Source: Kofleriaceae bacterium (GTDB lineage Bacteria; Myxococcota_A; Polyangia; Haliangiales; Haliangiaceae). From it: a stretch of 64,000 nt of DNA. Positions 49,440-60,934 of the stretch are shown one piece after another (position 1 is the first letter of the stretch; each line of letters opens with the position of its first letter). Made by a program: the position numbers and the translations under genes. The notes beneath the pieces are model-generated. The model saw nothing but the letters and a program-made list of their open reading frames with translations, made no database searches and was not told where the DNA came from. The DNA is taken from NCBI GenBank assembly GCA_041389925.1, contig JAWKQX010000006.1, positions 471,837 through 535,836 of the forward strand, written 5' to 3'.

Positions 49440-51911
49440 CTAGCGCTCGCGCGTCGGCGCTTCTTCCTCGAGCCCCTCGAACGCCCGCGGGATCGGTGTG
49501 AGGATCGGCCGGAGTTCTCCCAGCGCCGGGGAGAACAGCGTGAGCTGATCCGGATCCGTGAAGATCTCGGCGAAGTCCTCAGGGCGCAGGCCCGCGGCGA
49601 GGCGCGAAGCGAACGTGGTGCGCAGCAGCCGCTCGTAGTACTCGATGTCGTAGTCGCGAGGGTCCTCGGCGGGGCCGCCCTCTGGCGCGGTCTCCCCGTC
49701 GGGGCGAGCGGGCGGACCGGGGAGCACCGCGGGTCGATCGTTCGCGGCGCGGTAGATCCGCACCACCGCGCCGCGCCGCCAGGTGGTGAGGCCGCTCTGG
49801 AGCATCGCCTCGTAGGAGGCCTCGCGCCGCTGTCCGCGCCCTCCCTGGTACTCCTCGGCGGTCTTGTTCAGCCGCACGCGGGCGGTGACGTCGAACGTGG
49901 GGAGCGCGCGTCGGCGCAGCGCCGCGATCGTCTCGAGATACGCCGCCTGCACGCCGGGCAGGTCCGCGCGGAGCAGCCGCGCGAGCGCTCGCCGGAGGAA
50001 GGCCTCTCCGAACGGCTCGGCGCGGCTGGAGCGAAACGCGACGCCGCGCAGGACGAGCTCGCCGTCGTAGCCCAGCAAGGCGTAGTTTTTCGGCTCGTGG
50101 GAGAGCATGGCGGCGTAGCGCCCGTCGAACTGGAGCTGGACCAAGGGCGGTAGGAGCGCGTCCACCTCCGCGACGACGCGTCGCTCGTCGGCCTCGGTCC
50201 AGGACTCCGGGACCGCGAAGTAGACGCCGTCGGTGTCGGCCTCGAGCAGGGTCGCGCCGCGCGCGGCGAGCTCGCGACAGAGCAGCGAGAGCACCAGCCG
50301 GCCTCGCCGCGTCACCTCGTTCGCGGCGTGCACATCGGAGAAGCGGGTGAGCGTGCCCGCCGCCAGGTAGCCGTACGCGGAGTTCACGACCAGCTTCATC
50401 GCCGCGGAGCTGGCCTCTTCCTGATGGCGCGCCGCGGAGCCCTCTTCGGATGCGCGCGCGCGCGCCTTCGCCGCGAGCCGACGCTCCACCAGGTCGTCCA
50501 CCAGCGCGAGCAGCGCGCCGAGATGATCTCGCGCTGGGCCGATCCGATAGGCGCGCATGAGCGAGGGATAGAGGCTCGCGACGTCGGCCTTGACCACTCG
50601 CGACGCGACCCCGGCGGCGAACAAGTGCAGCGCGGCTCCTTGGTGCGGGGTGCCGTCGCTCGGCTGGTGCGCCGGCAACGCCGTACCGGCGCGCAGGTAC
50701 GCGCGCACGAGCAGCGGCTCGAGGATGCCGGTCGCCGCGCCGGCGTCGCCGAGGCGCTCGTAGCGACGGGGCACGAGCTTGGCCAGCGCGAAGGCGGCAC
50801 CGCCGAGCGTGCGCGCGACCGCCGCGGCCTCCTCGACGTCGTCCCGCGCGTAGCGCCGGACCCGTTCGGGGTCGCGGCGGAAGACGGCGTGCACCTCGGC
50901 CCCGGGGACATACTCGCGGCTCGCGGTCGCCAGGCCGAGGTGGCGGGCCACCGCCTTGAGCCCGTGGCCCGGCAGCTCGCGGGTCGCGAAGTCGAAGCGG
51001 CGCACGGCGTCGAGGCTGTCGAGGAGCTCGCGCCCCGGCACGGTGTAGCGCGCGCGCCGGGGTCGCCAGGCGCGCCCGGCCGAGGCCGCCGCGGCGTCCG
51101 CGTCGTCGCCGGTGGAGGTCGACGCGGAGCCGTCCTCGAACGACGCGCCACGCGCGGCGGGGCGGAGCCGCGGCCCCGGACCTCCGCCGCGACCGAGCAC
51201 GAGCGGCACGCCGAGACGCTCGGCGCGCGCGACCAGAAACGGCAGATCGAACCCGTGCAGGTTGTGGTTCTCGATCACGTCGGGATCGCACGCCTGGATC
51301 GCCTGCGCGAAGGCGCGCAGGAGCCGCGCCTCCGCCTCGTCGGTGTCGCCGTCGGTCTCCAGGATCTGTACGCCGCCGCTTGGGTCGCGCACGGCGATGA
51401 GGAAGATCCGGCTGCGCTCCGGAGACAGCCCGGTGGTCTCCAGATCGAACTGCGCGCGGTGAACCTCGTCGTACGAGAGATCGCGGAAGTAGGTGCGGCC
51501 GGACGCGACCAGGTACTGTTCCTCGGGAGGCAGCGCGATCACTTCCTGATCTTCGACCTGCCGCAGCGAGGAGAGCTGCCGGCCCAGCCGTCGCCCGGCG
51601 CCGCGCAGCACCGCCTGCTCCAGCGCGCGTCCATCGCGCGCGCGCACCAGGTAGCGCAGCTCGCCCGGGCCCTCCAGGACCTGGTGGGTCACCGCGTCGT
51701 CGGCGACCACCGGCGCCTCGCGCACCAGCCGCTCGCCCAGGTGTGCGAGATCGTCGAGGGAAGAGAGCACGATCCACGGGCGAAAGCTGGCGCGCTCGCG
51801 CACCAGGTGCCCATCACAGCGGCGCCAGATCCACGCTCTGCCGTCAGGCTCCGCCCACACCGAGACGATGCCCGGGGTCGGATCCCATCCCCAGAGCCGC
51901 TCGTCTCGCAT
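49440..51911 (-). CDS. polB: Family B DNA polymerase (Pol II-like) with 3'-5' exonuclease domain
   Basis: Exo I FDLETTGL, motif A DVASLYPSLM, motif B KLVVNSAYGY, motif C LLEADTDGVYF. Start MRDERLW at 51911. The Ser/Pro-rich upstream extension in the track is antisense to the greA-like repeat region. Confidence 0.85.
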   Translation of the reverse strand: MRDERLWGWDPTPGIVSVWAEPDGRAWIWRRCDGHLVRERASFRPWIVLSSLDDLAHLGERLVREAPVVADDAVTHQVLEGPGELRYLVRARDGRALEQAVLRGAGRRLGRQLSSLRQVEDQEVIALPPEEQYLVASGRTYFRDLSYDEVHRAQFDLETTGLSPERSRIFLIAVRDPSGGVQILETDGDTDEAEARLLRAFAQAIQACDPDVIENHNLHGFDLPFLVARAERLGVPLVLGRGGGPGPRLRPAARGASFEDGSASTSTGDDADAAAASAGRAWRPRRARYTVPGRELLDSLDAVRRFDFATRELPGHGLKAVARHLGLATASREYVPGAEVHAVFRRDPERVRRYARDDVEEAAAVARTLGGAAFALAKLVPRRYERLGDAGAATGILEPLLVRAYLRAGTALPAHQPSDGTPHQGAALHLFAAGVASRVVKADVASLYPSLMRAYRIGPARDHLGALLALVDDLVERRLAAKARARASEEGSAARHQEEASSAAMKLVVNSAYGYLAAGTLTRFSDVHAANEVTRRGRLVLSLLCRELAARGATLLEADTDGVYFAVPESWTEADERRVVAEVDALLPPLVQLQFDGRYAAMLSHEPKNYALLGYDGELVLRGVAFRSSRAEPFGEAFLRRALARLLRADLPGVQAAYLETIAALRRRALPTFDVTARVRLNKTAEEYQGGRGQRREASYEAMLQSGLTTWRRGAVVRIYRAANDRPAVLPGPPARPDGETAPEGGPAEDPRDYDIEYYERLLRTTFASRLAAGLRPEDFAEIFTDPDQLTLFSPALGELRPILTPIPRAFEGLEEEAPTRER

Positions 51912-51958
51912 CGCCCGTACTGTATCCCGTTCGGGCGAACCGGCTATGCTACGTGCTG

Positions 51959-52777
51959 ATGGGTCCATCGAAACCGGTCGGCAAGAGGGCCAGGGCGACG
52001 GCCGGGGGGAAGGCGAAGCCTGCGGTCGGGGGGAAGGCGAAGCCCGTAGCTCGCGCGAAGGCGAAGGCGAAGCCTGCGGTCGGGGGGAAGGCGAAGCCCG
52101 TAGCTCGCGCGAAGGCGAAGGCGAAGCCTGCAGCCGGGGCGAAGGCGACGTCGGTCGCCGGGGCGAAGGCGAAGCCCACGGCCGGCGCGAAGGCGAAGCC
52201 CGCGGTCGGGGGGAAGGCGACGGCTGCGTCGACGAGACCGGCCGAGGCCGTGCCCGCGAGGCCTGCGGCACCGCACCCGGCGCGCGCGGCCGACCCGCCG
52301 ACCTCGTCGCGCAAGGCGGCGCTGCGGCTGGAGCTGCTGCGCGCGCTCGAGCACGCCCTGGAGATCGCCCGCCTCGCGCACCACGCCGCAGTGGAGGGCG
52401 CCACCCACGAAGACGCTCGAGCCGAGAACGACAAGGACACGCGCGGCCTGGAGCAGTCGTACCTGGCGCGCGGCCACGCGCGCCGGGTCGCGGAGCTGGA
52501 GGCGGGAGTCGCGGCGCTGGAGGCGATGGAGTGGCTCGCGCTCGAGCCCGACACGCCGATCTCGCTTGGCGCGCTCGTCTCCGTCGAGGAAGGCGACCAC
52601 CTCCGCACGGTGCTGCTCGCGGCGCACGGCGGGGGCCTGACGCTGGCGGGCGGCGTCACGGTGGTGACCCCAGGGTCTCCGATGGGGCGCGCGCTCCTGG
52701 GCCGCGTCGCGGGGGACGAGTGCGAGGTGCAGATCGGCGCGCAGCCCCACGACCTGACGATCCTCACCGTGGAGTAG
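51959..52777 (+). CDS. GreA/GreB-family transcription factor homolog with N-terminal Lys/Ala/Pro-rich histone-H1-like repeat tail
   Basis: Start MGPSKPV at 51959. About 95 aa of AKAKPAVGGKAKPVARAK repeats, then a coiled coil, then a GreA C-terminal FKBP-like block (SPMGRALLGRVAGDECEVQIGAQPHDLTILTVE). Confidence 0.7.
   Translation: MGPSKPVGKRARATAGGKAKPAVGGKAKPVARAKAKAKPAVGGKAKPVARAKAKAKPAAGAKATSVAGAKAKPTAGAKAKPAVGGKATAASTRPAEAVPARPAAPHPARAADPPTSSRKAALRLELLRALEHALEIARLAHHAAVEGATHEDARAENDKDTRGLEQSYLARGHARRVAELEAGVAALEAMEWLALEPDTPISLGALVSVEEGDHLRTVLLAAHGGGLTLAGGVTVVTPGSPMGRALLGRVAGDECEVQIGAQPHDLTILTVE
52000..52240. repeat. Tandem ~54-bp coding repeats (AKAKPAVGGKAKPVARAK units)
   Basis: Near-identical direct repeats, gaaggcgaagcctgcggtcggggggaaggcgaagcccgtagctcgcgcgaaggc, occur at least twice, plus degenerate copies. 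Confidence 0.8.
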
Positions 52778-52834: not shown

Positions 52835-53905
52835 TCACGGGGCGCGGCGCGCGATCAGCGCCCGCAGCGGCTCGAGCGTCGCCGCGGACAGCGGCCCTCT
52901 CGCCGCCGCCGCTGCGTTCGCTTGGAGGTGCGCGGCGCTGCTCGTGCCGATGACCGCGGTGGTGACCGCCGGCGCTGACAGCGCGAAGCGCACCGCGAGC
53001 TCGGCCACCGTCTCGCACTCTGGCTCGCGCTCACGCCGCTGGACTCGCTCGAGGATCTCGCGCGCGCCGTTGGACGACCGCGCCGCCGGCGGCGCGGACT
53101 TGGTGAACTCGCAGAGCTCGGCGACGCGCCGCGAGAGCTCCTCCAGGCCTTCCGGCGCTCCGAAGCGCAGGTGGCGCACGTCGTCGTGGCGAAACGTGGA
53201 GGTAGCCAGGATCTCCCCGGAGAGGCCGCCCTGACCCATCACCAACGACGCGAAGAACGCCAGCTCGCGCTCCGCCGCGGCCGCCGCGAGCCGCTCCGCC
53301 GCGAGGGACCACAGGCAGTGAGGCGCCGCGATCGCGGCGAACACCGGCTGATCGAGCGCGCGCTCCGCCGCGGTCGTCGCCAGCCCGGGCAGACATAGCC
53401 CCCAGCTCAGCACCTTGCCCTTGCGCCGCAGCGCCTCCATGATCCCGAGGAGCTCGGGCCACGCCGTCGACTCTAGCCAGCTATCGTGCCACGCCGTGAG
53501 CATCACCAGAGGGAGCACCTCGAGCTTCGTCGCTCGCAGCGAACGCTCCACGCGCTCTTCCACATAGGCCGGAGGGAACACGCGCGGTAGCGGATCCCGA
53601 AACGCCAGCCCCTCATCGTCCTTGAGCAGCTCAAGCGCCGTCGGCGCGGCGAGCGGCGGCGGCACCTTCGTCGTCAGCAGGACCCGCTCCCACGCCCGGA
53701 GCGCCCGGAGCGCCTCGCCGCAGATGTTCTCCGACTCGCCCCACCACGGCGCGGTGTCCACCACGTCGACGCCGAGATCGAGGGCGAGCCCGAGCGTGCG
53801 CTTGAGCTCGGCCGGCGACACGTCGGGACGGCGGTATGCTCCGGTCACCGCAACTCCGAGCCGCCCGACTTCACGTCGCAGCCGTCCGACGTGTCTTCGC
53901 TCCAT
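52835..53905 (-). CDS. Aldo/keto reductase family oxidoreductase
   Basis: AKR-like (beta/alpha)8 blocks (DTAPWWGESE, LGLCLPG). ATG confirmed at 53903-53905. Confidence 0.75.
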   Translation of the reverse strand: MERRHVGRLRREVGRLGVAVTGAYRRPDVSPAELKRTLGLALDLGVDVVDTAPWWGESENICGEALRALRAWERVLLTTKVPPPLAAPTALELLKDDEGLAFRDPLPRVFPPAYVEERVERSLRATKLEVLPLVMLTAWHDSWLESTAWPELLGIMEALRRKGKVLSWGLCLPGLATTAAERALDQPVFAAIAAPHCLWSLAAERLAAAAAERELAFFASLVMGQGGLSGEILATSTFRHDDVRHLRFGAPEGLEELSRRVAELCEFTKSAPPAARSSNGAREILERVQRREREPECETVAELAVRFALSAPAVTTAVIGTSSAAHLQANAAAAARGPLSAATLEPLRALIARRAP

Positions 53906-54109
53906 CCTGTACCGACATACCCCAGGGTGCGCCGTCGGGACAGGGCCCGGGCAGGCAATCCCTCGTCGATGGGGATCCTACCCCTGGGGCCAGGGGCCCC
54001 ACCTGGTGGGGGTGCCGTCCCGGCGGCGGAGCGAGGCCGGAGGATGGTGCGCTCAAGTATGGGAAGTAGCGGCCACGACAGTGGATCCCTCCTTGCATCC
54101 AGTCGGCGC

Positions 54110-54847
54110 ATGAAGTCTAGCTTGGCTCTCACCCTGATCATCCTCGCCGCGCCGATCTCCGCCTCCGCGCACATCCACATGATCAAGCCGACCCCTCGGG
54201 TCGACTCCATCGGCGGCGACGCCAACGCGCAGAAGAGCAAGTACTGCGGCTCGCCGGGCTACTCGCGCGCCGCGCACCCCGAGCGCGTGACGCAGTTCAA
54301 GCCGGGCGCCACCATCCGCGTCATGTGGGAAGAGACGATCTCTCATCCCGGCTGGTACCGGATCTCGTTTCAGCCCAACGGCGAGGCGTTCACGGTGCCG
54401 CCGCCCGTAGGCAACGGCGGCTTCCCGACCGCGGACGAGACCGGCGTCACTGACCCGGCGACCGGCTCGACGATCCTCCTCGACCGGATCACCGACGGCG
54501 TGCCGGGGGCGATGCAGATGGCCGACATCACCCTGCCCAATATCGAGTGCGACAATTGCACTTTGCAGTTCACGCAGTTCATGACGGATAAGGCTCCCTA
54601 CACGAACGACGCGTTGAGCGACGATATCTACTTCAACTGCGCCGATCTCACGCTGAGCAACACCGCGCCTGATCCTGCTCCCGATGCCGGTCCCGTCGAC
54701 GCTGGCCCCGACGCGGGCAACCCGGCGCAGGACGACGGCACGCTCCGCGGCGGCTGCAGCGCGGGTGGCTCCACGGCGCTCGGCGGTTTCGCGGCGTTCG
54801 CGTTGCTCGGCCTCGTCGGGTTCTTGCGTCGGCGAGCGACGCGCTAG
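54110..54847 (+). CDS. Secreted protein with MYXO-CTERM-type C-terminal sorting tail; His-rich mature N-terminus (possible metal site)
   Basis: Signal peptide MKSSLALTLIILAAPISASA, then HIHMIKP. The C-terminus GGCSAGGSTALGGFAAFALLGLVGFLRRRATR fits Cys-TM-basic MYXO-CTERM. An alternative start is at 54044. Confidence 0.6.
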   Translation: MKSSLALTLIILAAPISASAHIHMIKPTPRVDSIGGDANAQKSKYCGSPGYSRAAHPERVTQFKPGATIRVMWEETISHPGWYRISFQPNGEAFTVPPPVGNGGFPTADETGVTDPATGSTILLDRITDGVPGAMQMADITLPNIECDNCTLQFTQFMTDKAPYTNDALSDDIYFNCADLTLSNTAPDPAPDAGPVDAGPDAGNPAQDDGTLRGGCSAGGSTALGGFAAFALLGLVGFLRRRATR

Positions 54848-55351
54848 GGCGCTCGCGATCTCGTCGCGTGAGACCACGCGGGCTCTTGGAGCGCCCGCCG
54901 CGGCGACGATGTAGGCGTTGCCCAGCGACGTGAGCGTTCGCCCTCAGCGACTCAAACTACCGCTGATGTGATCTGGAGAAGTGACGCGCGCGATGTGAGC
55001 GTTGTGCGCGAGTTCTCGACGACGCTCGCGCGCCTTTGTGTCGGCGGATGTGCGCGCGCGCGGCATGGTTCACGACGGTACGGCCGTTGTGTGCATCAAG
55101 CGAAGTTTATTCGAGATTCTCGTAAGAGGAGTGTTGCGGTGGTAGGTGTCTTCTGCGAGTCTTGCGGTACCAAATTGGGTCGTTGTGAAGAGCCGTAGAA
55201 CCTATCCCTTCTGCGTCGCTGTTCGTCGGGGCGGGCGTTCCGAGGAGCAGAGGCACCTTTGCGTCGGGCACGCCGCCGCGCTCGAGGGTAGCGCGGCGAG
55301 AGTTCAGGTCTTCACGAGCGCGGGGTGGCACCACAACGTTCTGGCGAGGGC

Positions 55352-56188
55352 ATGATGGAAGGAGATTTGAGTCTGTTGTCGATTCCTGATCTGCTTCAGA
55401 TGATCTGTCTGGGTGGATATAGTCGAGACATCCATCTCTTCGATGGCCAGACTCAACTCGGCGTGATCGCGATTCGCAACGGCCGCGTGGATCGATGCTT
55501 CGGCTACGGCACCTGGGGCGAGGGCGCGTTCTTCAAGCTCGTGACGCTCCGACGGGGTCGCTACAAGGTCAACGATGCGCAGGACATGTCGGCCTCCGAC
55601 GCGACGCTCACGGCGTACTCCTGGCAAGAGCTCCTCATGGAGGCGGCCCGCCAGCAAGACGAGGCCGCCCGGGTCGCGCAGGTGTCCGCGGCGAACGCGG
55701 GGCGCGTCATCCCCTTTCCGACGCCGACGTCGCACGGTGGCGGCGGTGGCGCCGAGGTGATGCGGAGCGACACCGGCTCCCTCTCGATGCGCGACGCCTC
55801 GTCCGGCTCCGCGGAGACGCACTTCGATTTCCCCGCGATCTTCGATGCGCCGGGTCCGACGTCGACCTCGAGCAGTGTGGCGCCGACGGTGATCGCGCGC
55901 AGCGACTCACCTCGACCCGCGTCCGACACCGCGCGTCAGATCCCGATCATCGCCGCGGTGGCGACGGCGCAGCCGATCGCGCTGGCGGCGCAGCCCGCGC
56001 CGCAGCCCGAGCCAGTCGACCGCGGCTCGGAGGACGTGACGAACCTCTTGCAGGAAGCGACGGCCTGCTATCTGCGCAGAGACCTGGACCGCGCGGAGTC
56101 GTTGCTCCTTCGGTGCCTTGAGCTCCGACCTGGAGACCGGCGAGCGACCCAGAACCTGGATCGAATCCGACGAAAGAAGTCCCCATGA
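55352..56188 (+). CDS. PATAN/DUF4388-domain protein with C-terminal TPR-like helix
   Basis: GDLSLLSIPDLLQMICLGGYSRDIHLFDGQTQLGVIAIRNGRVDRCFGYGTWGEGAFFKLVTLRRGRYKV matches the DUF4388 consensus. It is the first gene of the coupled operon. Confidence 0.7.
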   Translation: MMEGDLSLLSIPDLLQMICLGGYSRDIHLFDGQTQLGVIAIRNGRVDRCFGYGTWGEGAFFKLVTLRRGRYKVNDAQDMSASDATLTAYSWQELLMEAARQQDEAARVAQVSAANAGRVIPFPTPTSHGGGGGAEVMRSDTGSLSMRDASSGSAETHFDFPAIFDAPGPTSTSSSVAPTVIARSDSPRPASDTARQIPIIAAVATAQPIALAAQPAPQPEPVDRGSEDVTNLLQEATACYLRRDLDRAESLLLRCLELRPGDRRATQNLDRIRRKKSP

Positions 56189-56988
56189 TCTCGCTCGCGA
56201 TCGTGAGTCCGAAGGGTGGTGTCGGCAAGACCACCCTCTGCTTGAACCTCGCGTACGCCTTCGCGCAGCTCGGCAAGAAGACGCTGCTCATCGACACCGA
56301 TCCGCAAGGCGGCATCGGGCACTCCCTGATGGGCAAGACCAAGGACGCGATCGGCCTGGTGGACCTCCTCGAGGGTGAGCCCGCGAGTCGCGTGGTGATC
56401 CAGACCCGCAATCGCAACCTTTCGATCCTCCCGGTGGGACAGCCCCCGTGGGAGCGGCTGTCCGAGTGGTCCGCGGACATGGCGCGCCCTGGGTTCCTCG
56501 CCGCTCACCTGGAGTCGCTGGAAGGCGAGCACGACCTCGCGATCATCGACACCCCCGCCGGGCTCTCTGGGCCGACCTACGGGGTCATGGCCTACGCCAG
56601 TGATCTCCTGTCGCCGATCCAGACCGAGCCGTTGGCGATCCGCGTCGTCGGGCAGCTCATGGAGGTGCTGGGCCACCTGAAAGCGCAAGGCGCGCGCGCG
56701 AACCTGTGCGGCGTCGTGCTCACCATGGCGAGGATGCGCGACGAGACCTCGCTGTCGATCTCGCAGGAGGCGTGGTCGCTGTTTCCCGAGCGCATGGTGC
56801 TCGACACCGTCGTGCCGCGGGACTCCGAGCTGCTGAAGGCCAGCGCGCAGGGGGTGCCGGTCGGGCTCCTGCGCAAGCGTCCTCCACCCGTCACCGCCGT
56901 GTTCGATCGGATCGCCGCGGAGCTGGAACCTCGTCTTGGAATGACGGAGATCAACGATGACGAACAGCCGATCCCTCTCTTGGATTGA
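56185..56988 (+). CDS. MinD/ParA-family (SIMIBI) P-loop ATPase
   Basis: Deviant Walker A SPKGGVGKTT, Walker A' IDTDPQG, Walker B LAIIDTPAG. ATGA overlap with the upstream gene. Confidence 0.85.
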   Translation: MISLAIVSPKGGVGKTTLCLNLAYAFAQLGKKTLLIDTDPQGGIGHSLMGKTKDAIGLVDLLEGEPASRVVIQTRNRNLSILPVGQPPWERLSEWSADMARPGFLAAHLESLEGEHDLAIIDTPAGLSGPTYGVMAYASDLLSPIQTEPLAIRVVGQLMEVLGHLKAQGARANLCGVVLTMARMRDETSLSISQEAWSLFPERMVLDTVVPRDSELLKASAQGVPVGLLRKRPPPVTAVFDRIAAELEPRLGMTEINDDEQPIPLLD

Positions 56989-57592
56989 CCGCGGGCGCTG
57001 GAACACGCTGCTCGCGGCCGCGACCCAAGGTGGGCCGGCGCTCGCGCCGCGCGGGCCAACGCCAGCCCGGCCTGCTCCGGCGCGTCCCGCACCGGCGGCC
57101 CCTTCCCCTGCGCGGGAGACCCCGGCGCCCGAGCCTGCGGCTGCGGCTGCGGCTCCGGCGGCGCCGGCCGCCGTCGCCACTCCGCGGAGCTACGCCACGT
57201 ACGAGTGTACGTCGACGCTGCTCGATGACCGCCTGCAGGCCCTGATGGCGTGGATCGAGGCGAGCGTGCCTTGTCAGGCGGCCTTCATCGCCGATGACAA
57301 CGGACTCCCCGTAGTGGAGCACATCGGCGCGGAGCAGGGCCACGTCGCCGCCGCGTCCTCGATCCTCTTGATGCTCGCGTCGGTGCGTTCGCTGGTGCGG
57401 GAGAGCGGTGGGTGGCTCTCGCTCAAGTTGAGCTCAAGCGTGTTGAACGTCGTCGAGCTCACGACGCAGTGGGGGCGCTTCGGGATCGGCGTCGTCACGG
57501 ACGACCTCTTGTCCCAGGAGTTCTTCGCCGCGCTGAGCGCGGCGGTCGAGCGCGCATTTCATGGAGATTCGCCTGAAGGAGAGACAACTTGA
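56957..57592 (+). CDS. Roadblock/LC7 (MglB-like) domain protein with Pro/Ala-rich N-terminal region
   Basis: QAAFIADDNGLPVVEHIGAEQGHVAAASSILLMLASVRSLVRESGGWLSLKLSSSVLNVVELTTQWGRFGIGVVTD fits Robl_LC7. It overlaps the ParA gene by 32 nt. Confidence 0.65.
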   Translation: MTNSRSLSWIDRGRWNTLLAAATQGGPALAPRGPTPARPAPARPAPAAPSPARETPAPEPAAAAAAPAAPAAVATPRSYATYECTSTLLDDRLQALMAWIEASVPCQAAFIADDNGLPVVEHIGAEQGHVAAASSILLMLASVRSLVRESGGWLSLKLSSSVLNVVELTTQWGRFGIGVVTDDLLSQEFFAALSAAVERAFHGDSPEGETT

Positions 57593-58167
57593 TGGATCGC
57601 TACCTCGAACAGGCCGTCGTTGAGGTCCCGCAGCTCATCGGGATCTTCGTGACCGCAATGCCTGACAGCTTGCTGTTCTCGTCCTGGGTGCGCGACGGGA
57701 CCGAGTGGAGCGCGGAAGACGTGGCCTCGTATTTCGGAGACCTCGTGCGCTCGAACCGGCAAGGGCTCAAGGCGCTCGGCTCCTGGTCGAGCGAGATGCA
57801 GGTCACCATCGAGTCCGCGGAGTCGTTGGTCGTCCTCCGCGAGATCTCCGCAGACTTCGTGTGCGGCTGCGTGTTCGAGCGCAACGCGCCGCTCGGGATG
57901 GTGCGCCTCCACCTCAAGCGGCTGCTGGAGCGCGTCGCGCAGGCGCTGCCCAAGGTGCAGGCCGAGGATCGCCCGCGCGGCACGCGGATCATGGAGTTCC
58001 TGGATCGGTATGCGCCAGATCCGCACGCGGTCACGCTCCGCGTGTCGCTGCGCTCCGGCATCCCAGTCGACGATCTGAAGTCACCTGCCTCCCTCAGCGC
58101 GGATCAGATCAAGCGGCTGGAAGAGACCGCCTGCAAGATCCTTGGCGTTCATCAGCTGAGCCTCTGA
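57592..58167 (+). CDS. Roadblock/LC7-like domain protein
   Basis: ATG at 57592 overlaps the upstream stop (ATGA). VPQLIGIFVTAMPDSLLFSSWVRDG...VTIESAESLVVLREISADFVCGCVFERNAPLGMVRL fits the Robl fold pattern. Confidence 0.55.
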   Translation: MDRYLEQAVVEVPQLIGIFVTAMPDSLLFSSWVRDGTEWSAEDVASYFGDLVRSNRQGLKALGSWSSEMQVTIESAESLVVLREISADFVCGCVFERNAPLGMVRLHLKRLLERVAQALPKVQAEDRPRGTRIMEFLDRYAPDPHAVTLRVSLRSGIPVDDLKSPASLSADQIKRLEETACKILGVHQLSL

Positions 58168-58179
58168 AAGGAACATGAC

Positions 58180-59433
58180 ATGGCTATCGGAGACCTGAGA
58201 GGGCTATTCGCTGAACAGAGCCTCACGTTCCTCGCTGAGATTCCCTATATCTACCACTGTCATCACTACAACCTCTTCCACGACCAGACCATCGACGACG
58301 CGCTCGGCGAAGATGAAGGGGCGCGCGTGCGCACCACCGCCGCGCATAACTCGTTCCGCGATCTGTTGTCCGCGGTGTTCGAGAAGGCCGGCGCCTCGAC
58401 GCCCGTCGAGCGGATCGCGCTCGCGTCGGAGCTGTTCTCCTGGATGGGCCAGGGCAAGCTCGCGCTGGACGTCAGCGCCGCCGGAGGCCGGGCGAGGTCG
58501 CCTTCGCTGCACTACGGCTACGCGTGGCGCGAGAAGTACGGCTCGCGCGTCAAGCGCGTGGAGCCCGCGGACGCCGTCGCCGCGGGCTTTGCCGGCGCGG
58601 CGACGGAGCTGGCGTTCGGCCTGCCGTCGGAGGCCATCGCCGTCACGGAGCGCAAGTGCGTCGCCGCGCGCGACCCGGAGTGTGAGTTCGAGCTGACGCC
58701 GACGACCGGCCACCCGCCGCTGCCGCCCGTCGATGAGATGACCGTGCGCCGCTACGTCGTCCCCGCGGTGGGGGGCGTCGACGAGGCGAGGATCGTCGCG
58801 ATCTCTCAGGGCCTCCTGGAGTTCATGCGCGCGGTGCAGGGCGACGAGCGGGGCCTGGTCGCCGCGTTCAATGTCTTCGTCACCGCGCACCTGCCGGGCT
58901 ACTACAACGAGACCGTGTACGAGACCGTGCACCGCGCCGAGCGCACCGCGCCGTCCAGCGTGCCCGCGATCGAGGCGCTCATGCAGCAGGCCGGACAGGC
59001 CTGCGTGTTCTTCACGTTCGGCAACGTGCTCTTGTCACCCGAGTGGGATGGCATGGTCGGCGCCCCGACCGGAGATCCGTCGGACGTCGTGTCGTTCTGC
59101 GCCGCGATCGCGCGCGGCCTCGGCTTCGGCCACTGGCTGGTGAACGAGTACGCTCCGCGTAAGCGCCTGGTGCTCCAGTGCACCAGCAACTACGAGGTGC
59201 CGTTCTATCGGAGCCGCTACGGCGTCGCCAAGAAGCCTCGCTCGTACTTCATCCAGGGCGCGGCGCAGGCGATGATGGTCCTCGCTGAGGTCGTCAAGTG
59301 GAAGGAGCGCCCGCAGCTCACGAACGACTACTACGTCGATCTGTTTCGCGCCAAGCCGCGGTATCGGGTGGAGCAGACGAAGTGCTTGATGCGGGGCGAC
59401 ACGATCTCCGAGTACGTGGTCGAGGCGATGTAG
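58180..59433 (+). CDS. Tandem V4R (4-vinyl reductase / Bet3-TRAPP-like) domain protein
   Basis: Two V4R C-terminal signatures are present: VTERKCVAARDPECEFEL and VEQTKCLMRGDTISEYVV. The consensus is E.kC...Gd..CeFe. There is a strong RBS (aaaggaacatgac). Confidence 0.6.
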   Translation: MAIGDLRGLFAEQSLTFLAEIPYIYHCHHYNLFHDQTIDDALGEDEGARVRTTAAHNSFRDLLSAVFEKAGASTPVERIALASELFSWMGQGKLALDVSAAGGRARSPSLHYGYAWREKYGSRVKRVEPADAVAAGFAGAATELAFGLPSEAIAVTERKCVAARDPECEFELTPTTGHPPLPPVDEMTVRRYVVPAVGGVDEARIVAISQGLLEFMRAVQGDERGLVAAFNVFVTAHLPGYYNETVYETVHRAERTAPSSVPAIEALMQQAGQACVFFTFGNVLLSPEWDGMVGAPTGDPSDVVSFCAAIARGLGFGHWLVNEYAPRKRLVLQCTSNYEVPFYRSRYGVAKKPRSYFIQGAAQAMMVLAEVVKWKERPQLTNDYYVDLFRAKPRYRVEQTKCLMRGDTISEYVVEAM

Positions 59434-59442
59434 CAGGAACCC

Positions 59443-59802
59443 ATGTCCAACGCGTCCGCGCAGCCAGCTGCCACCGCCGACTTGGTTCAGGGCCCCCAGC
59501 GCCTGAGCTTGTCCCTGACGCGTGAGGTCACGTGCCTGCGCTCGCTGGCGTGGCGCTGTGATCTCCCACCGGCCTTGCACTGGGACGGGCTCGTCGAGCA
59601 GCTCCTGCAGGCGGGCCTCTCGCCGGTGGCGACCGTGGCGGGGCTGGTGCGGCTCTCGGCGGTGAGCGGAGACGAGATCGTGCTCGTGCCGCGCAGCGGA
59701 CGCGTGCAGCTTCGCGTTCACTATACGGTTCCAGAGCACGAGCGGCGGTTCGCGGCGGAGAGGCTCTTTCAGCTCCTCGTATCTGCGTTGCGCCTCCTAT
59801 GA
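59443..59802 (+). CDS. Hypothetical small protein (operon member)
   Basis: 119 aa with no motifs and mixed alpha/beta character. Its stop overlaps the next start (ATGA). Confidence 0.45.
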   Translation: MSNASAQPAATADLVQGPQRLSLSLTREVTCLRSLAWRCDLPPALHWDGLVEQLLQAGLSPVATVAGLVRLSAVSGDEIVLVPRSGRVQLRVHYTVPEHERRFAAERLFQLLVSALRLL

Positions 59803-60137
59803 GCGTGCCCCCAGAGCTCGATCAGCTTCGCGGCGCGACGCCACAATGCGCGGGCGTCGCGCTCTTTCAAGGGGCACCGCTGACGGTGATCGCCAGCAGC
59901 GGCGAGGCGGCCCTCGCGGGCTGGTCCTCGTGGGAGGACGTCGCCGAGATCGCGCCCTCCTTGCTCGAGGAGGGACCGTCCGCGGTCTCGGAGGTCTTGC
60001 TGCGGCTGCCCGAGGCGATGCTGCTCTTGTCCGCGCAGCCGGGCGGCGTGGTCGCCGTGGTCATGGCGCTCACCAAGGCGGGCGCCGGCGTGGCGCTCGT
60101 CCAGGCGCGCGTGACCGCGTCGAAGGTGAGCGGATGA
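59799..60137 (+). CDS. Roadblock/LC7-like small protein
   Basis: GVALFQGAPLTVIASSGEAALAGW...VLLRLPEAMLLLSAQPGGVVAVVMALTKAGAGVALVQARV is a Robl-like beta-alpha-beta pattern. 112 aa. Confidence 0.5.
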   Translation: MSVPPELDQLRGATPQCAGVALFQGAPLTVIASSGEAALAGWSSWEDVAEIAPSLLEEGPSAVSEVLLRLPEAMLLLSAQPGGVVAVVMALTKAGAGVALVQARVTASKVSG

Positions 60138-60934
60138 GGATGGGGCTGTTCACGCTGTTCGCGCGGCTGGCGGAGCCGCCGAGGCCGGGCACCGGCGGCT
60201 GGAAGATCCGGACGGGGGACGGTCACCAGGGTGTCGTGTTGATGGAGGGCGGGCGGATCTGTTGGGCCAACCATGATCAGGGCGGCCGACTCAGCGACGA
60301 GATCGAGCGCCGTTTCGGCGTCGACCGCAGCACCATCGAGCAGGTCATCCGGCTGTGCAAGGAGCGCAACAAGCCCTTCGGCGCGTCCCTCGTCGAGGAA
60401 GGCTGCATCACGCAGGCCGAGCTGGCGTCCGCGCTGCGCGAGCACACCTGCCGTAGCATCCTCTCGCTGGTCAAGGCGGGCGTCTACCAGTGCGAGTGGG
60501 TCCATCATCAAGGCGGCGGCTACGCTGCCGAGACGACGATCACCCTCGCGCAGACCGTGAGCAGCTGCGTCGCGCTGCTCAAGGGCCTGAACCCTGAGGG
60601 GCTGGAGGCTTCGCTGGAGACGATCGTCGCCGGCGAGGCCGCGGGGCTCCTCGTCCACGCGGCGGCGCGCCTCCCCATCTCCGCGTCGGTCAACCCGGTG
60701 GCGTGGTCCGAGCTGCGGAGCTGGTTCACGTGGGCGCTGCACGTCGACGGCGCGTGTCACCTGGCCTCGCAGGCGTTCCTCGCGGGACGCGGGCCGAAGG
60801 GCGGGTGGGTGCTCTGGCGCGTCGGCTCGATCATCGGGCTCGCGGTGAGTCGCAGCGAGGAGGTGCAGCGCCGCGTCCTGCTCCGGGTGTCGTCGGCGCT
60901 CCCGGACTGGGCCGTGGAGCAGCCCAGGCCCTGA
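60134..60934 (+). CDS. DUF4388-like protein carrying an MshEN/GspE-N-like motif (possible c-di-GMP-binding)
   Basis: GWKIRTGDGHQGVVLMEGGRICWA is a DUF4388-like core. KPFGASLVEEGCITQAELASALREH fits the MshEN pattern RLGxxLLxxGLLxxxxLxxxLxxQ. ATGA coupling to the upstream gene. Confidence 0.5.
   Translation: MRMGLFTLFARLAEPPRPGTGGWKIRTGDGHQGVVLMEGGRICWANHDQGGRLSDEIERRFGVDRSTIEQVIRLCKERNKPFGASLVEEGCITQAELASALREHTCRSILSLVKAGVYQCEWVHHQGGGYAAETTITLAQTVSSCVALLKGLNPEGLEASLETIVAGEAAGLLVHAAARLPISASVNPVAWSELRSWFTWALHVDGACHLASQAFLAGRGPKGGWVLWRVGSIIGLAVSRSEEVQRRVLLRVSSALPDWAVEQPRP

Follow-up and report, generated by a model that had tools for sequence, protein, structure and literature searches.

V4R, Roadblock, ParA/MinD, and PATAN proteins all belong to known families, and the V4R domains among them are widespread and poorly understood outside the phenol-sensing enhancer-binding proteins. 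Bet3-fold and Roadblock/longin-fold subunits make up the core of the eukaryotic TRAPP complex. Here, we describe protein E, a tandem V4R-fold protein encoded on the forward (+) strand at positions 58180..59433 of a 64,000-nucleotide stretch of DNA (hereafter "the window") from a Kofleriaceae bacterium (class Polyangia, order Haliangiales; GenBank assembly GCA_041389925.1, contig JAWKQX010000006.1, positions 471,837 to 535,836), together with the genes that surround it. In the literature, we found no description of a standalone tandem-V4R family or of a conserved operon that joins it to Roadblock and ParA/MinD genes.

In the sensory domain of DmpR, phenol is bound in a hydrophobic cavity beside a Zn site formed by C151, E172, C177, and C185, and the N-terminal residues 18–45 intertwine with the partner domain to give an interlocked homodimer (PMC7264223). 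Redox-dependent DNA binding by MsvR has been linked to the conserved cysteines C206, C232, and C240 of its V4R domain, the latter two with C-x7-C spacing, and the clearest case is that of C206 (PMC3729527). A Zn site is common to V4R, PoxR, and the Asgard TRAPPC3 (PMC10933270), and the homology of V4R with Bet3, on record since 2008, was put forward by Podar et al. (PMC2253512). Roadblock and longin dimers act as platforms for nucleoside triphosphatases (NTPases); in TRAPP, the longin dimer is the platform for Rab, and the C-terminus of Bet3 contributes guanine nucleotide exchange factor (GEF) activity (PMC3747258). As a rule, Asgard archaea do not encode their GTPases in operons together with Roadblock, longin, or TRAPPC3 proteins (Tran et al., PMC10933270). 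The Streptomyces conservon brings together a sensor kinase and a small GTPase with a Roadblock protein and a fourth, unknown protein. The PATAN domain has been described to serve as an output and to bind the motor of the type IV pilus (PilB1/PilC); PATAN genes neighbor mglB-like genes, and fusions of PATAN proteins to GspE_N-type domains have also been reported.

The tandem V4R fold of protein E

Protein E has 417 amino acids and an ATG start, and is built from two V4R-like domains, at residues ~1–185 (58180..58734, +) and ~196–417 (58765..59430, +). The AlphaFold model of E, which was built on the family alignment, reached a predicted local distance difference test score (pLDDT) of 93.7 and a predicted template modeling score (pTM) of 0.92, and shows the alpha/beta fold of V4R and Bet3, with a helical layer on a four-stranded antiparallel sheet. 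According to DSSP, domain 1 consists of three N-terminal strands, three helices, a beta-hairpin, two helices, and a second beta-hairpin, and this order of elements occurs twice in the model. Domain 2 is a duplicate of domain 1 that has diverged and carries two insertions, at residues ~275–297, which hold the invariant C275 and the motif SPEW, and at residues ~374–394. A Foldseek search with the model retrieved MopR/PoxR (E~7e-5, template modeling score 0.73); such structural relatives were revealed by fold comparison only, as searches of PDB sequences with E alone or with the family profile gave no match.

At the sequence level, the window protein itself is a poor V4R match, which counts against the assignment: Pfam V4R (PF02830) aligns with residues 138–174 only, at E=8.3e-5 and 23 bits, below the gathering score of 31 bits, while the second copy is undetected and the C-terminal half alone gave no match. 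A scan against NCBIfam likewise gave no match. More than 200 homologs were found, nearly all of them 416–425 amino acids long among the matches listed (120). Because V4R was matched by 41 of 47 aligned family members (best E 6.7e-10) and several orthologs carry a precomputed PF02830 annotation, E is, as far as its sequence can tell, a divergent branch of the V4R family and not a non-member.

The output of the structure comparison is silent on which half of the protein had aligned, and the second half was therefore examined independently, in three ways. When the C-terminal halves of ten orthologs were isolated, nine matched Pfam V4R at the expected register, with E-values down to 1e-6, and in eight V4R was the sole family reported. 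An alignment of the N-terminal against the C-terminal half with hhalign was weak when based on 47 sequences (E=0.005, probability 6.7%), and reached a probability of 89.8% (E=1.8e-6, 155 columns) with 130 family members plus single-domain relatives; it pairs residues 12–175 with 223–417, essentially one whole domain with the other. In addition, when 1.84 billion representatives were searched exhaustively with a profile, the matches included standalone proteins of ~205–225 amino acids (P0367, P0381, P0315, P0372, P0382, and P0339) that match domain 2 only, at E-values of 1e-30 to 1e-52. These relatives end in the canonical V4R signature KC.AKGDP.CEF, for instance KCIAKGDPHCEF, and have V4R as their sole Pfam match; they may represent a single-domain ancestor or a split version. 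No other domain was detected in E by Pfam or NCBIfam, in particular no AAA+, sigma54-interaction, or helix-turn-helix (HTH) domain, and the chain ends directly after the second V4R signature. TRAPP_Bet3 (PF04051) had no match at E<=1 in the window protein and was absent from the families matched by the 47 orthologs.

These results confirm the description of E as a tandem V4R protein that had been given by a sequence-only reading of the window. The open reading frame (ORF) at 58180..59433 contains both peptides quoted there exactly as stated, the presence of two V4R copies in one protein is borne out by the hhalign alignment, the isolated C-terminal halves, and the repeated elements of the model, and the structure prediction that it suggested agrees with the V4R/Bet3 fold and leads to MopR/PoxR. 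The Pfam comparison that it also suggested had a mixed outcome, with a sub-threshold score for the window protein but matches in most orthologs.

Of the two signatures, the first, ERKCVAARDPECEFEL (residues 157–172, 58648..58695, +), has the form E157-x2-C160-x7-C168, and all three of these residues are invariant in the 47 aligned family members. Since its C-x7-C spacing is that of the DmpR Zn ligands C177/C185 and of C232/C240 in MsvR, the hairpin is probably Zn-binding or redox-sensitive. The second, EQTKCLMRGDTISEYVV (residues 398–414, 59371..59421, +), aligns with the first column for column, and the claim that it is a V4R signature holds only in degenerate form for the window lineage (Q399, C402, and S410): the C-x7-C hairpin with its upstream Glu, which binds Zn in solved V4R members, is present in domain 1 and replaced by Q/C/S in domain 2. 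In many orthologs from the Acidobacteriota and Polyangia, E-x2-C-x7-C is intact at this position as well, for instance in EETRCRSKGDEICEVVV. A third motif, YHCHHYNLFHDQ (residues 25–36, 58252..58287, +), lies at the junction of strand 3 and helix 1 of domain 1. Its residues H26, C27, H29, N31, L32, D35, and Q36 are invariant in the 47 sequences, which come from several phyla, and H28 and H34 are conserved in at least 90% of them, making it a candidate metal, cofactor, or ligand site as judged from conservation. The pattern HCHH[YF]NLF is specific enough to pull the family out of 185,579 genomes.

The gene cluster and the partner proteins

This pattern scan, in which each of 185,579 species was represented by one genome, found relatives of E in 142 genomes. 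The 80 loci listed from it are all from metagenome-assembled genomes (MAGs), and no cultured organism with the cluster was identified among them. Most belong to the Myxococcota (Kofleriaceae/Haliangiales, Polyangiaceae, Sandaracinaceae, and Nannocystaceae), and the others to the Acidobacteriota (ten loci, mainly Thermoanaerobaculia), the Methylococcaceae (two), and one genome labeled Bdellovibrionales; the closest loci (90% identity) are from Haliangiales/Kofleriaceae MAGs. The family is rare: the exhaustive profile search recovered 472 of the 1.84 billion cluster representatives at E<=1e-3, of which 146 also reach E<=1e-30. One Acidobacteriota MAG (P01_B01_bin.53) has tandem-V4R genes with C/D/F neighbors on two separate contigs (loci L028 and L034), which suggests that paralogous modules occur in one genome.

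In the window (G+C ~70%), E is the fifth of eight same-strand (+) genes, A to H, between 55325 and 60934, with 4-nt overlaps or gaps of 9–12 nt between neighbors and a 32-nt overlap of B and C. The order (A)n-B-C-D-E-F is dominant, and B-C-D-E-F recurs in the Myxococcota, Acidobacteriota, and Methylococcaceae. D is located directly upstream of E, and F flanks E, in 82 of 83 loci each; C was found in 73 loci (jackhmmer), B in 64, and A-like proteins in 49 by phmmer or 73 by jackhmmer, where cross-hits to TPR proteins are possible, while G and H are limited to nine loci each. As the outer flanks differ between genomes, the cluster is a self-contained module. The co-operonic arrangement of E with Roadblock proteins and a P-loop NTPase, noticed from the sequence alone, is thus found as a tight same-strand array that is conserved across phyla.

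Protein D (192 amino acids, 57589..58167, +) combines an MglB-like Roadblock/LC7 domain (~1–127) with a conserved C-terminal extension. The eight best PDB matches of the D ortholog profile are all MglB (E 0.0012–0.28), followed by MglC at E=1.2, and 26 of 46 D orthologs match the NCBIfam MglB model NF052242 (best E=1.7e-5). Because there is no match to Pfam Robl_LC7 and scores are far below the equivalog cut-off of the NCBIfam MglB model (14 against 200 bits), D is by sequence a distant Roadblock/MglB relative and not an MglB ortholog. Its extension (residues ~128–192, ~65 amino acids) contains the invariant residues Y141, D144, H146, and R151 and the motif RYAPDPHAV..RV.LR.G, had no match in Pfam, NCBIfam, or PDB, and may serve to dock E or F.

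Protein C (211 amino acids, 56957..57592, +) has a Pro/Ala-rich N-terminal linker and a C-terminal domain of ~120 amino acids that may be Roadblock-like. Weak matches (E>=0.004) to Pfam LAMTOR5 and Robl_LC7 occur in seven and one of 40 C orthologs, respectively, the hhalign alignment of C with D is in register and weak (E=0.059), and searches of PDB and NCBIfam with C gave no match. Protein G (112 amino acids, 59799..60137, +), possibly also Roadblock-like, has relatives in Kofleriaceae/Haliangiales only; its best PDB match, 7f8m, has a Robl_LC7 domain but does not reach significance (E=0.83), and hhalign aligns it with D over 107 columns at E=0.0045. Protein F (119 amino acids, 59443..59802, +) is a small protein with an unassigned alpha+beta fold and an obligate partner of E. 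It is 100% identical to a protein encoded in a Kofleriaceae MAG (R3B48_25400), in line with an uncultured myxobacterium as the source of the window. The proximity of E to Roadblock proteins had been part of the sequence-only reading as well, and it holds for the MglB-like D, weakly for C and G, and not for F.

Protein B (267 amino acids, 56185..56988, +) belongs to the ParA/MinD superfamily. Its translation reads an intact deviant Walker A motif (SPKGGVGKTT) and Walker B motif (DLAIIDTP), it matches Pfam AAA_31 (88.6 bits, threshold 27) and CbiA (76.3 bits, threshold 25.4), and its matches to the MinD/ParA models of NCBIfam are far below the equivalog cut-offs, so that no specific equivalog is reached. 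On the basis of these motifs and matches, B is a SIMIBI-class ParA/MinD ATPase and not a GTPase of the Ras/Rab/Rag type.

Protein A (287 amino acids, 55325..56188, +) has a PATAN (PatA_N/DUF4388) domain followed by a C-terminal TPR-like repeat. Pfam DUF4388 (PF14332) matches residues 12–114 at 44.5 bits, above the 25-bit threshold, the TPR matches are sub-threshold, and PatA_N is annotated at the position of A in locus L003. The lineage-specific protein H (266 amino acids, 60134..60934, +) is possibly a second PATAN-like protein: its match to DUF4388 (E=0.016, 15.7 bits) is below the 25-bit threshold and may indicate a divergent copy. The weak PATAN-like region of H is followed at residues ~67–103 by a stretch, PFGASLVEEGCITQAELASALREH, that resembles the cyclic di-GMP-binding MshEN/GspE_N domain (NCBIfam NF053729, E=5e-4, 19.8 bits, cut-off 38). 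These PATAN proteins, which the sequence-only reading had left unmentioned, flank the cluster, and by analogy with described ones they suggest that its output concerns polarity or type IV pili and not membrane trafficking.

The operon is immediately preceded by a 318-amino acid ORF (53891–54847, +) that is not conserved alongside the cluster elsewhere. Its translation reads as having an apparent signal or anchor segment and, at the C-terminus, a hydrophobic tail that leads into RRR (GFAAFALLGLVGFLRRRATR), similar to a sorting signal. Further upstream, a 943-amino acid ORF on the opposite strand (49440–52271, −) has a C-terminal part that reads as similar to a family-B DNA polymerase and a Pro/Ser/Ala-rich N-terminal region with repeated "ASPSPRPQ/SRELR" units; an ORF on the strand opposite to it (51743–52777, +) has a product with KAKPAVGGKAKPVARAKA repeats.

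A proposed signaling module and its alternatives

There is hardly any doubt about the domain-level picture, i.e., a tandem V4R fold in E, an MglB-like Roadblock domain in D, a ParA/MinD ATPase in B, and a conserved operon. From the observed fold, duplication, conserved Cys, His, and Glu positions, and gene linkage, we tentatively derive a mechanistic chain by analogy with known systems. E would consist of two V4R sensor modules of the XylR_N plus V4R type (DmpR/PoxR/MopR) fused head to tail and, because the phenol-sensor module works as an interlocked homodimer, would in effect be a covalent pseudo-dimer. Its halves have diverged, with domain 1 keeping the invariant E-x2-C-x7-C and the unique invariant HCHH, and domain 2 acquiring insertions and losing one hairpin Cys in the window lineage. 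Like other V4R domains, E may bind a small hydrophobic ligand, or sense redox state or metals through its Cys/His sites. Lacking an output of its own, be it DNA-binding, kinase, or AAA+, it would signal by protein-protein contact with its obligate neighbors D and F. D, probably paired with C, would form a Roadblock-dimer platform that regulates an NTPase, here the ParA/MinD-type ATPase B. The switch would be the ATP-dependent dimer cycle of B, and the PATAN proteins (A and, in this lineage, H) would couple this switch to a target such as the type IV pilus or the polarity machinery. The whole would be a sensor-to-Roadblock-to-NTPase module, analogous in its logic to MglA/MglB and the Streptomyces conservon. 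As a complete chain, from the ligand or redox sensor E through Roadblock and ATPase B to a PATAN target, we consider this possible and would not place it beyond that.

Several points weigh against this chain. Its functional steps all draw on homology and gene order. Control of a ParA/MinD ATPase by Roadblock proteins is without precedent, as the literature that we found describes Roadblock regulation for GTPases only. The Roadblock assignment is solid for D only, with C and G no more than weakly Roadblock-like in sequence, and for F it was rejected, given an alpha+beta fold that differs from the Roadblock order a-b-b-a-b-b-b-a. Loci such as L001 and L002 have D-E-F without an adjacent ParA gene, and the ATPase may therefore not be the obligatory target. 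As E has no Cys ~26 residues upstream of C160, an equivalent of the DmpR Zn ligand C151 is not evident, and the metal site may therefore differ or be absent. The sole D-E fusion, P0057 (613 amino acids, in frame, L084:1681-3522, on a single 4.5-kb contig), may be a very recent fusion or a sequencing error: compared with window positions 58165–58182, the D stop codon TGA reads TTA, and the 21-nt spacer still holds the GGAGA ribosome-binding site. We did not rely on P0057 as Rosetta-stone evidence, since it rests on one base and its "linker" still contains a ribosome-binding site.

A variant that is compatible with the proposed chain and differs from it in the signal only would make E a redox, metal, or gas sensor, in which HCHH and the E/C/C hairpin bind Zn, Fe, Cu, or a cofactor, or form reversible disulfides, and which reports oxidative or metal stress to the partner proteins. 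The exceptional conservation of H26, C27, H28, H29, E157, C160, C168, and C275 is in favor of this variant, as are the redox role implied for the MsvR cysteines (PMC3729527) and the Zn site shared by V4R, PoxR, and Asgard TRAPPC3 (PMC10933270). In DmpR/PoxR, however, the Zn site is structural and phenol is sensed by the ligand pocket (PMC7264223), such that the Cys and Glu residues of E could likewise be structural, and the domain 2 site is degenerate in the window lineage. We regard this variant as rather doubtful.

The sequence-only reading had compared the locus to the Bet3-Roadblock-GTPase logic of eukaryotic assemblies, and along this line E could stand in for a Bet3-family heterodimer and, with a Roadblock pair in place of the longin pair, form a bacterial TRAPP-like assembly. 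Such an assembly would be a regulator of nucleotide state, resembling a GEF or a GTPase-activating protein, or a tether for the co-encoded NTPase, possibly located at the membrane. Put in terms of the TRAPP-core/Ragulator principle, E would dock on a C-D Roadblock heterodimer that controls the nucleotide state of B. The proposed homology of V4R and Bet3 (PMC2253512) and the division of labor in TRAPP, with the longin dimer as the Rab platform and the Bet3 C-terminus providing GEF activity (PMC3747258), are consistent with this, and both TRAPP-core folds are encoded in one operon: alongside an NTPase, it holds a V4R pseudo-dimer, one supported Roadblock protein, and one or two further candidates. 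The GTPase part of the comparison did not survive, however: B, the NTPase in question, is of the ParA/MinD type with a deviant Walker A motif and not a Ras-like GTPase, and the parallel is therefore limited to fold content. Furthermore, E lacks a Pfam TRAPP_Bet3 match and is more similar to bacterial sensors, F, the most tightly linked partner, has no counterpart in TRAPP, and neither a membrane anchor nor a lipidation site nor a vesicle-related gene was observed. The module thus resembles eukaryotic TRAPP loosely, the analogy is speculative, and we consider both the assembly and its docking version unlikely.

It is more improbable still that E acts as a carrier or chaperone of a hydrophobic metabolite (BchJ-like or BcsD-like), without a role in signaling and with its neighbors as co-factors of biosynthesis or export. 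V4R was named after BchJ, and B is weakly BcsQ-like (Pfam CBP_BcsQ, 43 bits), but there are no conserved biosynthetic, transport, or polysaccharide genes around the cluster, whose outer flanks vary between genomes, and the neighbors are from the regulatory families Roadblock, PATAN, and ParA/MinD. An anti-phage or conflict system built around the NTPase with Roadblock regulators is highly improbable and was rejected despite weak generic P-loop matches of B to the PADLOC candidate models PDC-M28B (E=6e-7) and mad8 (E=1.4e-4), since seven of the eight operon proteins, E included, had no PADLOC match, Pfam and NCBIfam revealed no effector domain such as a nuclease, protease, or TIR domain, and the synteny across Myxococcota and Acidobacteriota is stable and vertical-looking rather than island-like.

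With the sensor-to-Roadblock-to-NTPase chain as the preferred reading, the interest of the family lies in a sensor that occurs twice in a single chain without any output domain and that a fixed gene order ties to an MglB-like Roadblock protein and the small protein F. Most genomes add a ParA/MinD ATPase and PATAN proteins, which gives a discrete multi-protein signaling module that is accessible to experiments; as every listed genome is a MAG, heterologous expression would be needed in practice. Regulation of the ParA/MinD ATPase by the Roadblock proteins, if real, would carry the principle of Roadblock proteins as an NTPase platform over to a different class of NTPases. Should the TRAPP/Ragulator principle apply, this would be the first operon-level link between the Bet3 fold and the Roadblock fold in prokaryotes, here in the Myxococcota. 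Because the TRAPP core joins both folds and the Asgard genes are generally not in operons, the bacterial operon offers a concrete system for asking whether Bet3-fold and Roadblock proteins work together intrinsically.

Comparison with described sensors and NTPase systems

Compared to the sensory (A) domains of DmpR, PoxR, MopR, and XylR, which form a homodimer, the two modules of E are fused in one chain that has no AAA+ or HTH output. Sequence identity between them is 10–16%, and Pfam XylR_N was not detected in E. Relative to the four-ligand Zn site of DmpR, E keeps the C-x7-C pair and the Glu, and an equivalent of C151 is not apparent; the HCHH motif of E, in turn, is absent from the published descriptions of those sensors that were compared. 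The archaeal MJ1460 (PDB 2oso/2osd) is a single domain of ~150 amino acids, whereas E is a 417-amino acid tandem with N-terminal extensions and insertions.

The Bet3-family proteins TRAPPC3, TRAPPC5, and TRAPPC6 and the Asgard TRAPPC3 differ from E in that the latter has no sequence-level match to TRAPP_Bet3. The partner NTPase is a Rab in TRAPP and a ParA/MinD ATPase in the E cluster, and E bears no sign of lipid attachment, membrane association, or GEF activity. While the Asgard genes are generally not in operons, those of the E cluster are operonic.

The cluster is also similar in architecture to bacterial systems in which a Roadblock protein is encoded beside an NTPase, as D is here and as in MglA/MglB(/MglC), and PATAN beside MglB is a gene neighborhood that has been described earlier. 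It shares with the Streptomyces conservon (CvnA-D) the four parts sensor, Roadblock protein, unknown protein, and NTPase. In both of these systems the NTPase is Ras-like, in contrast to the ParA/MinD-type ATPase of the E cluster; the sensor is a histidine kinase in the conservon and a tandem V4R protein here, and D, unlike MglB, carries an extra C-terminal domain.

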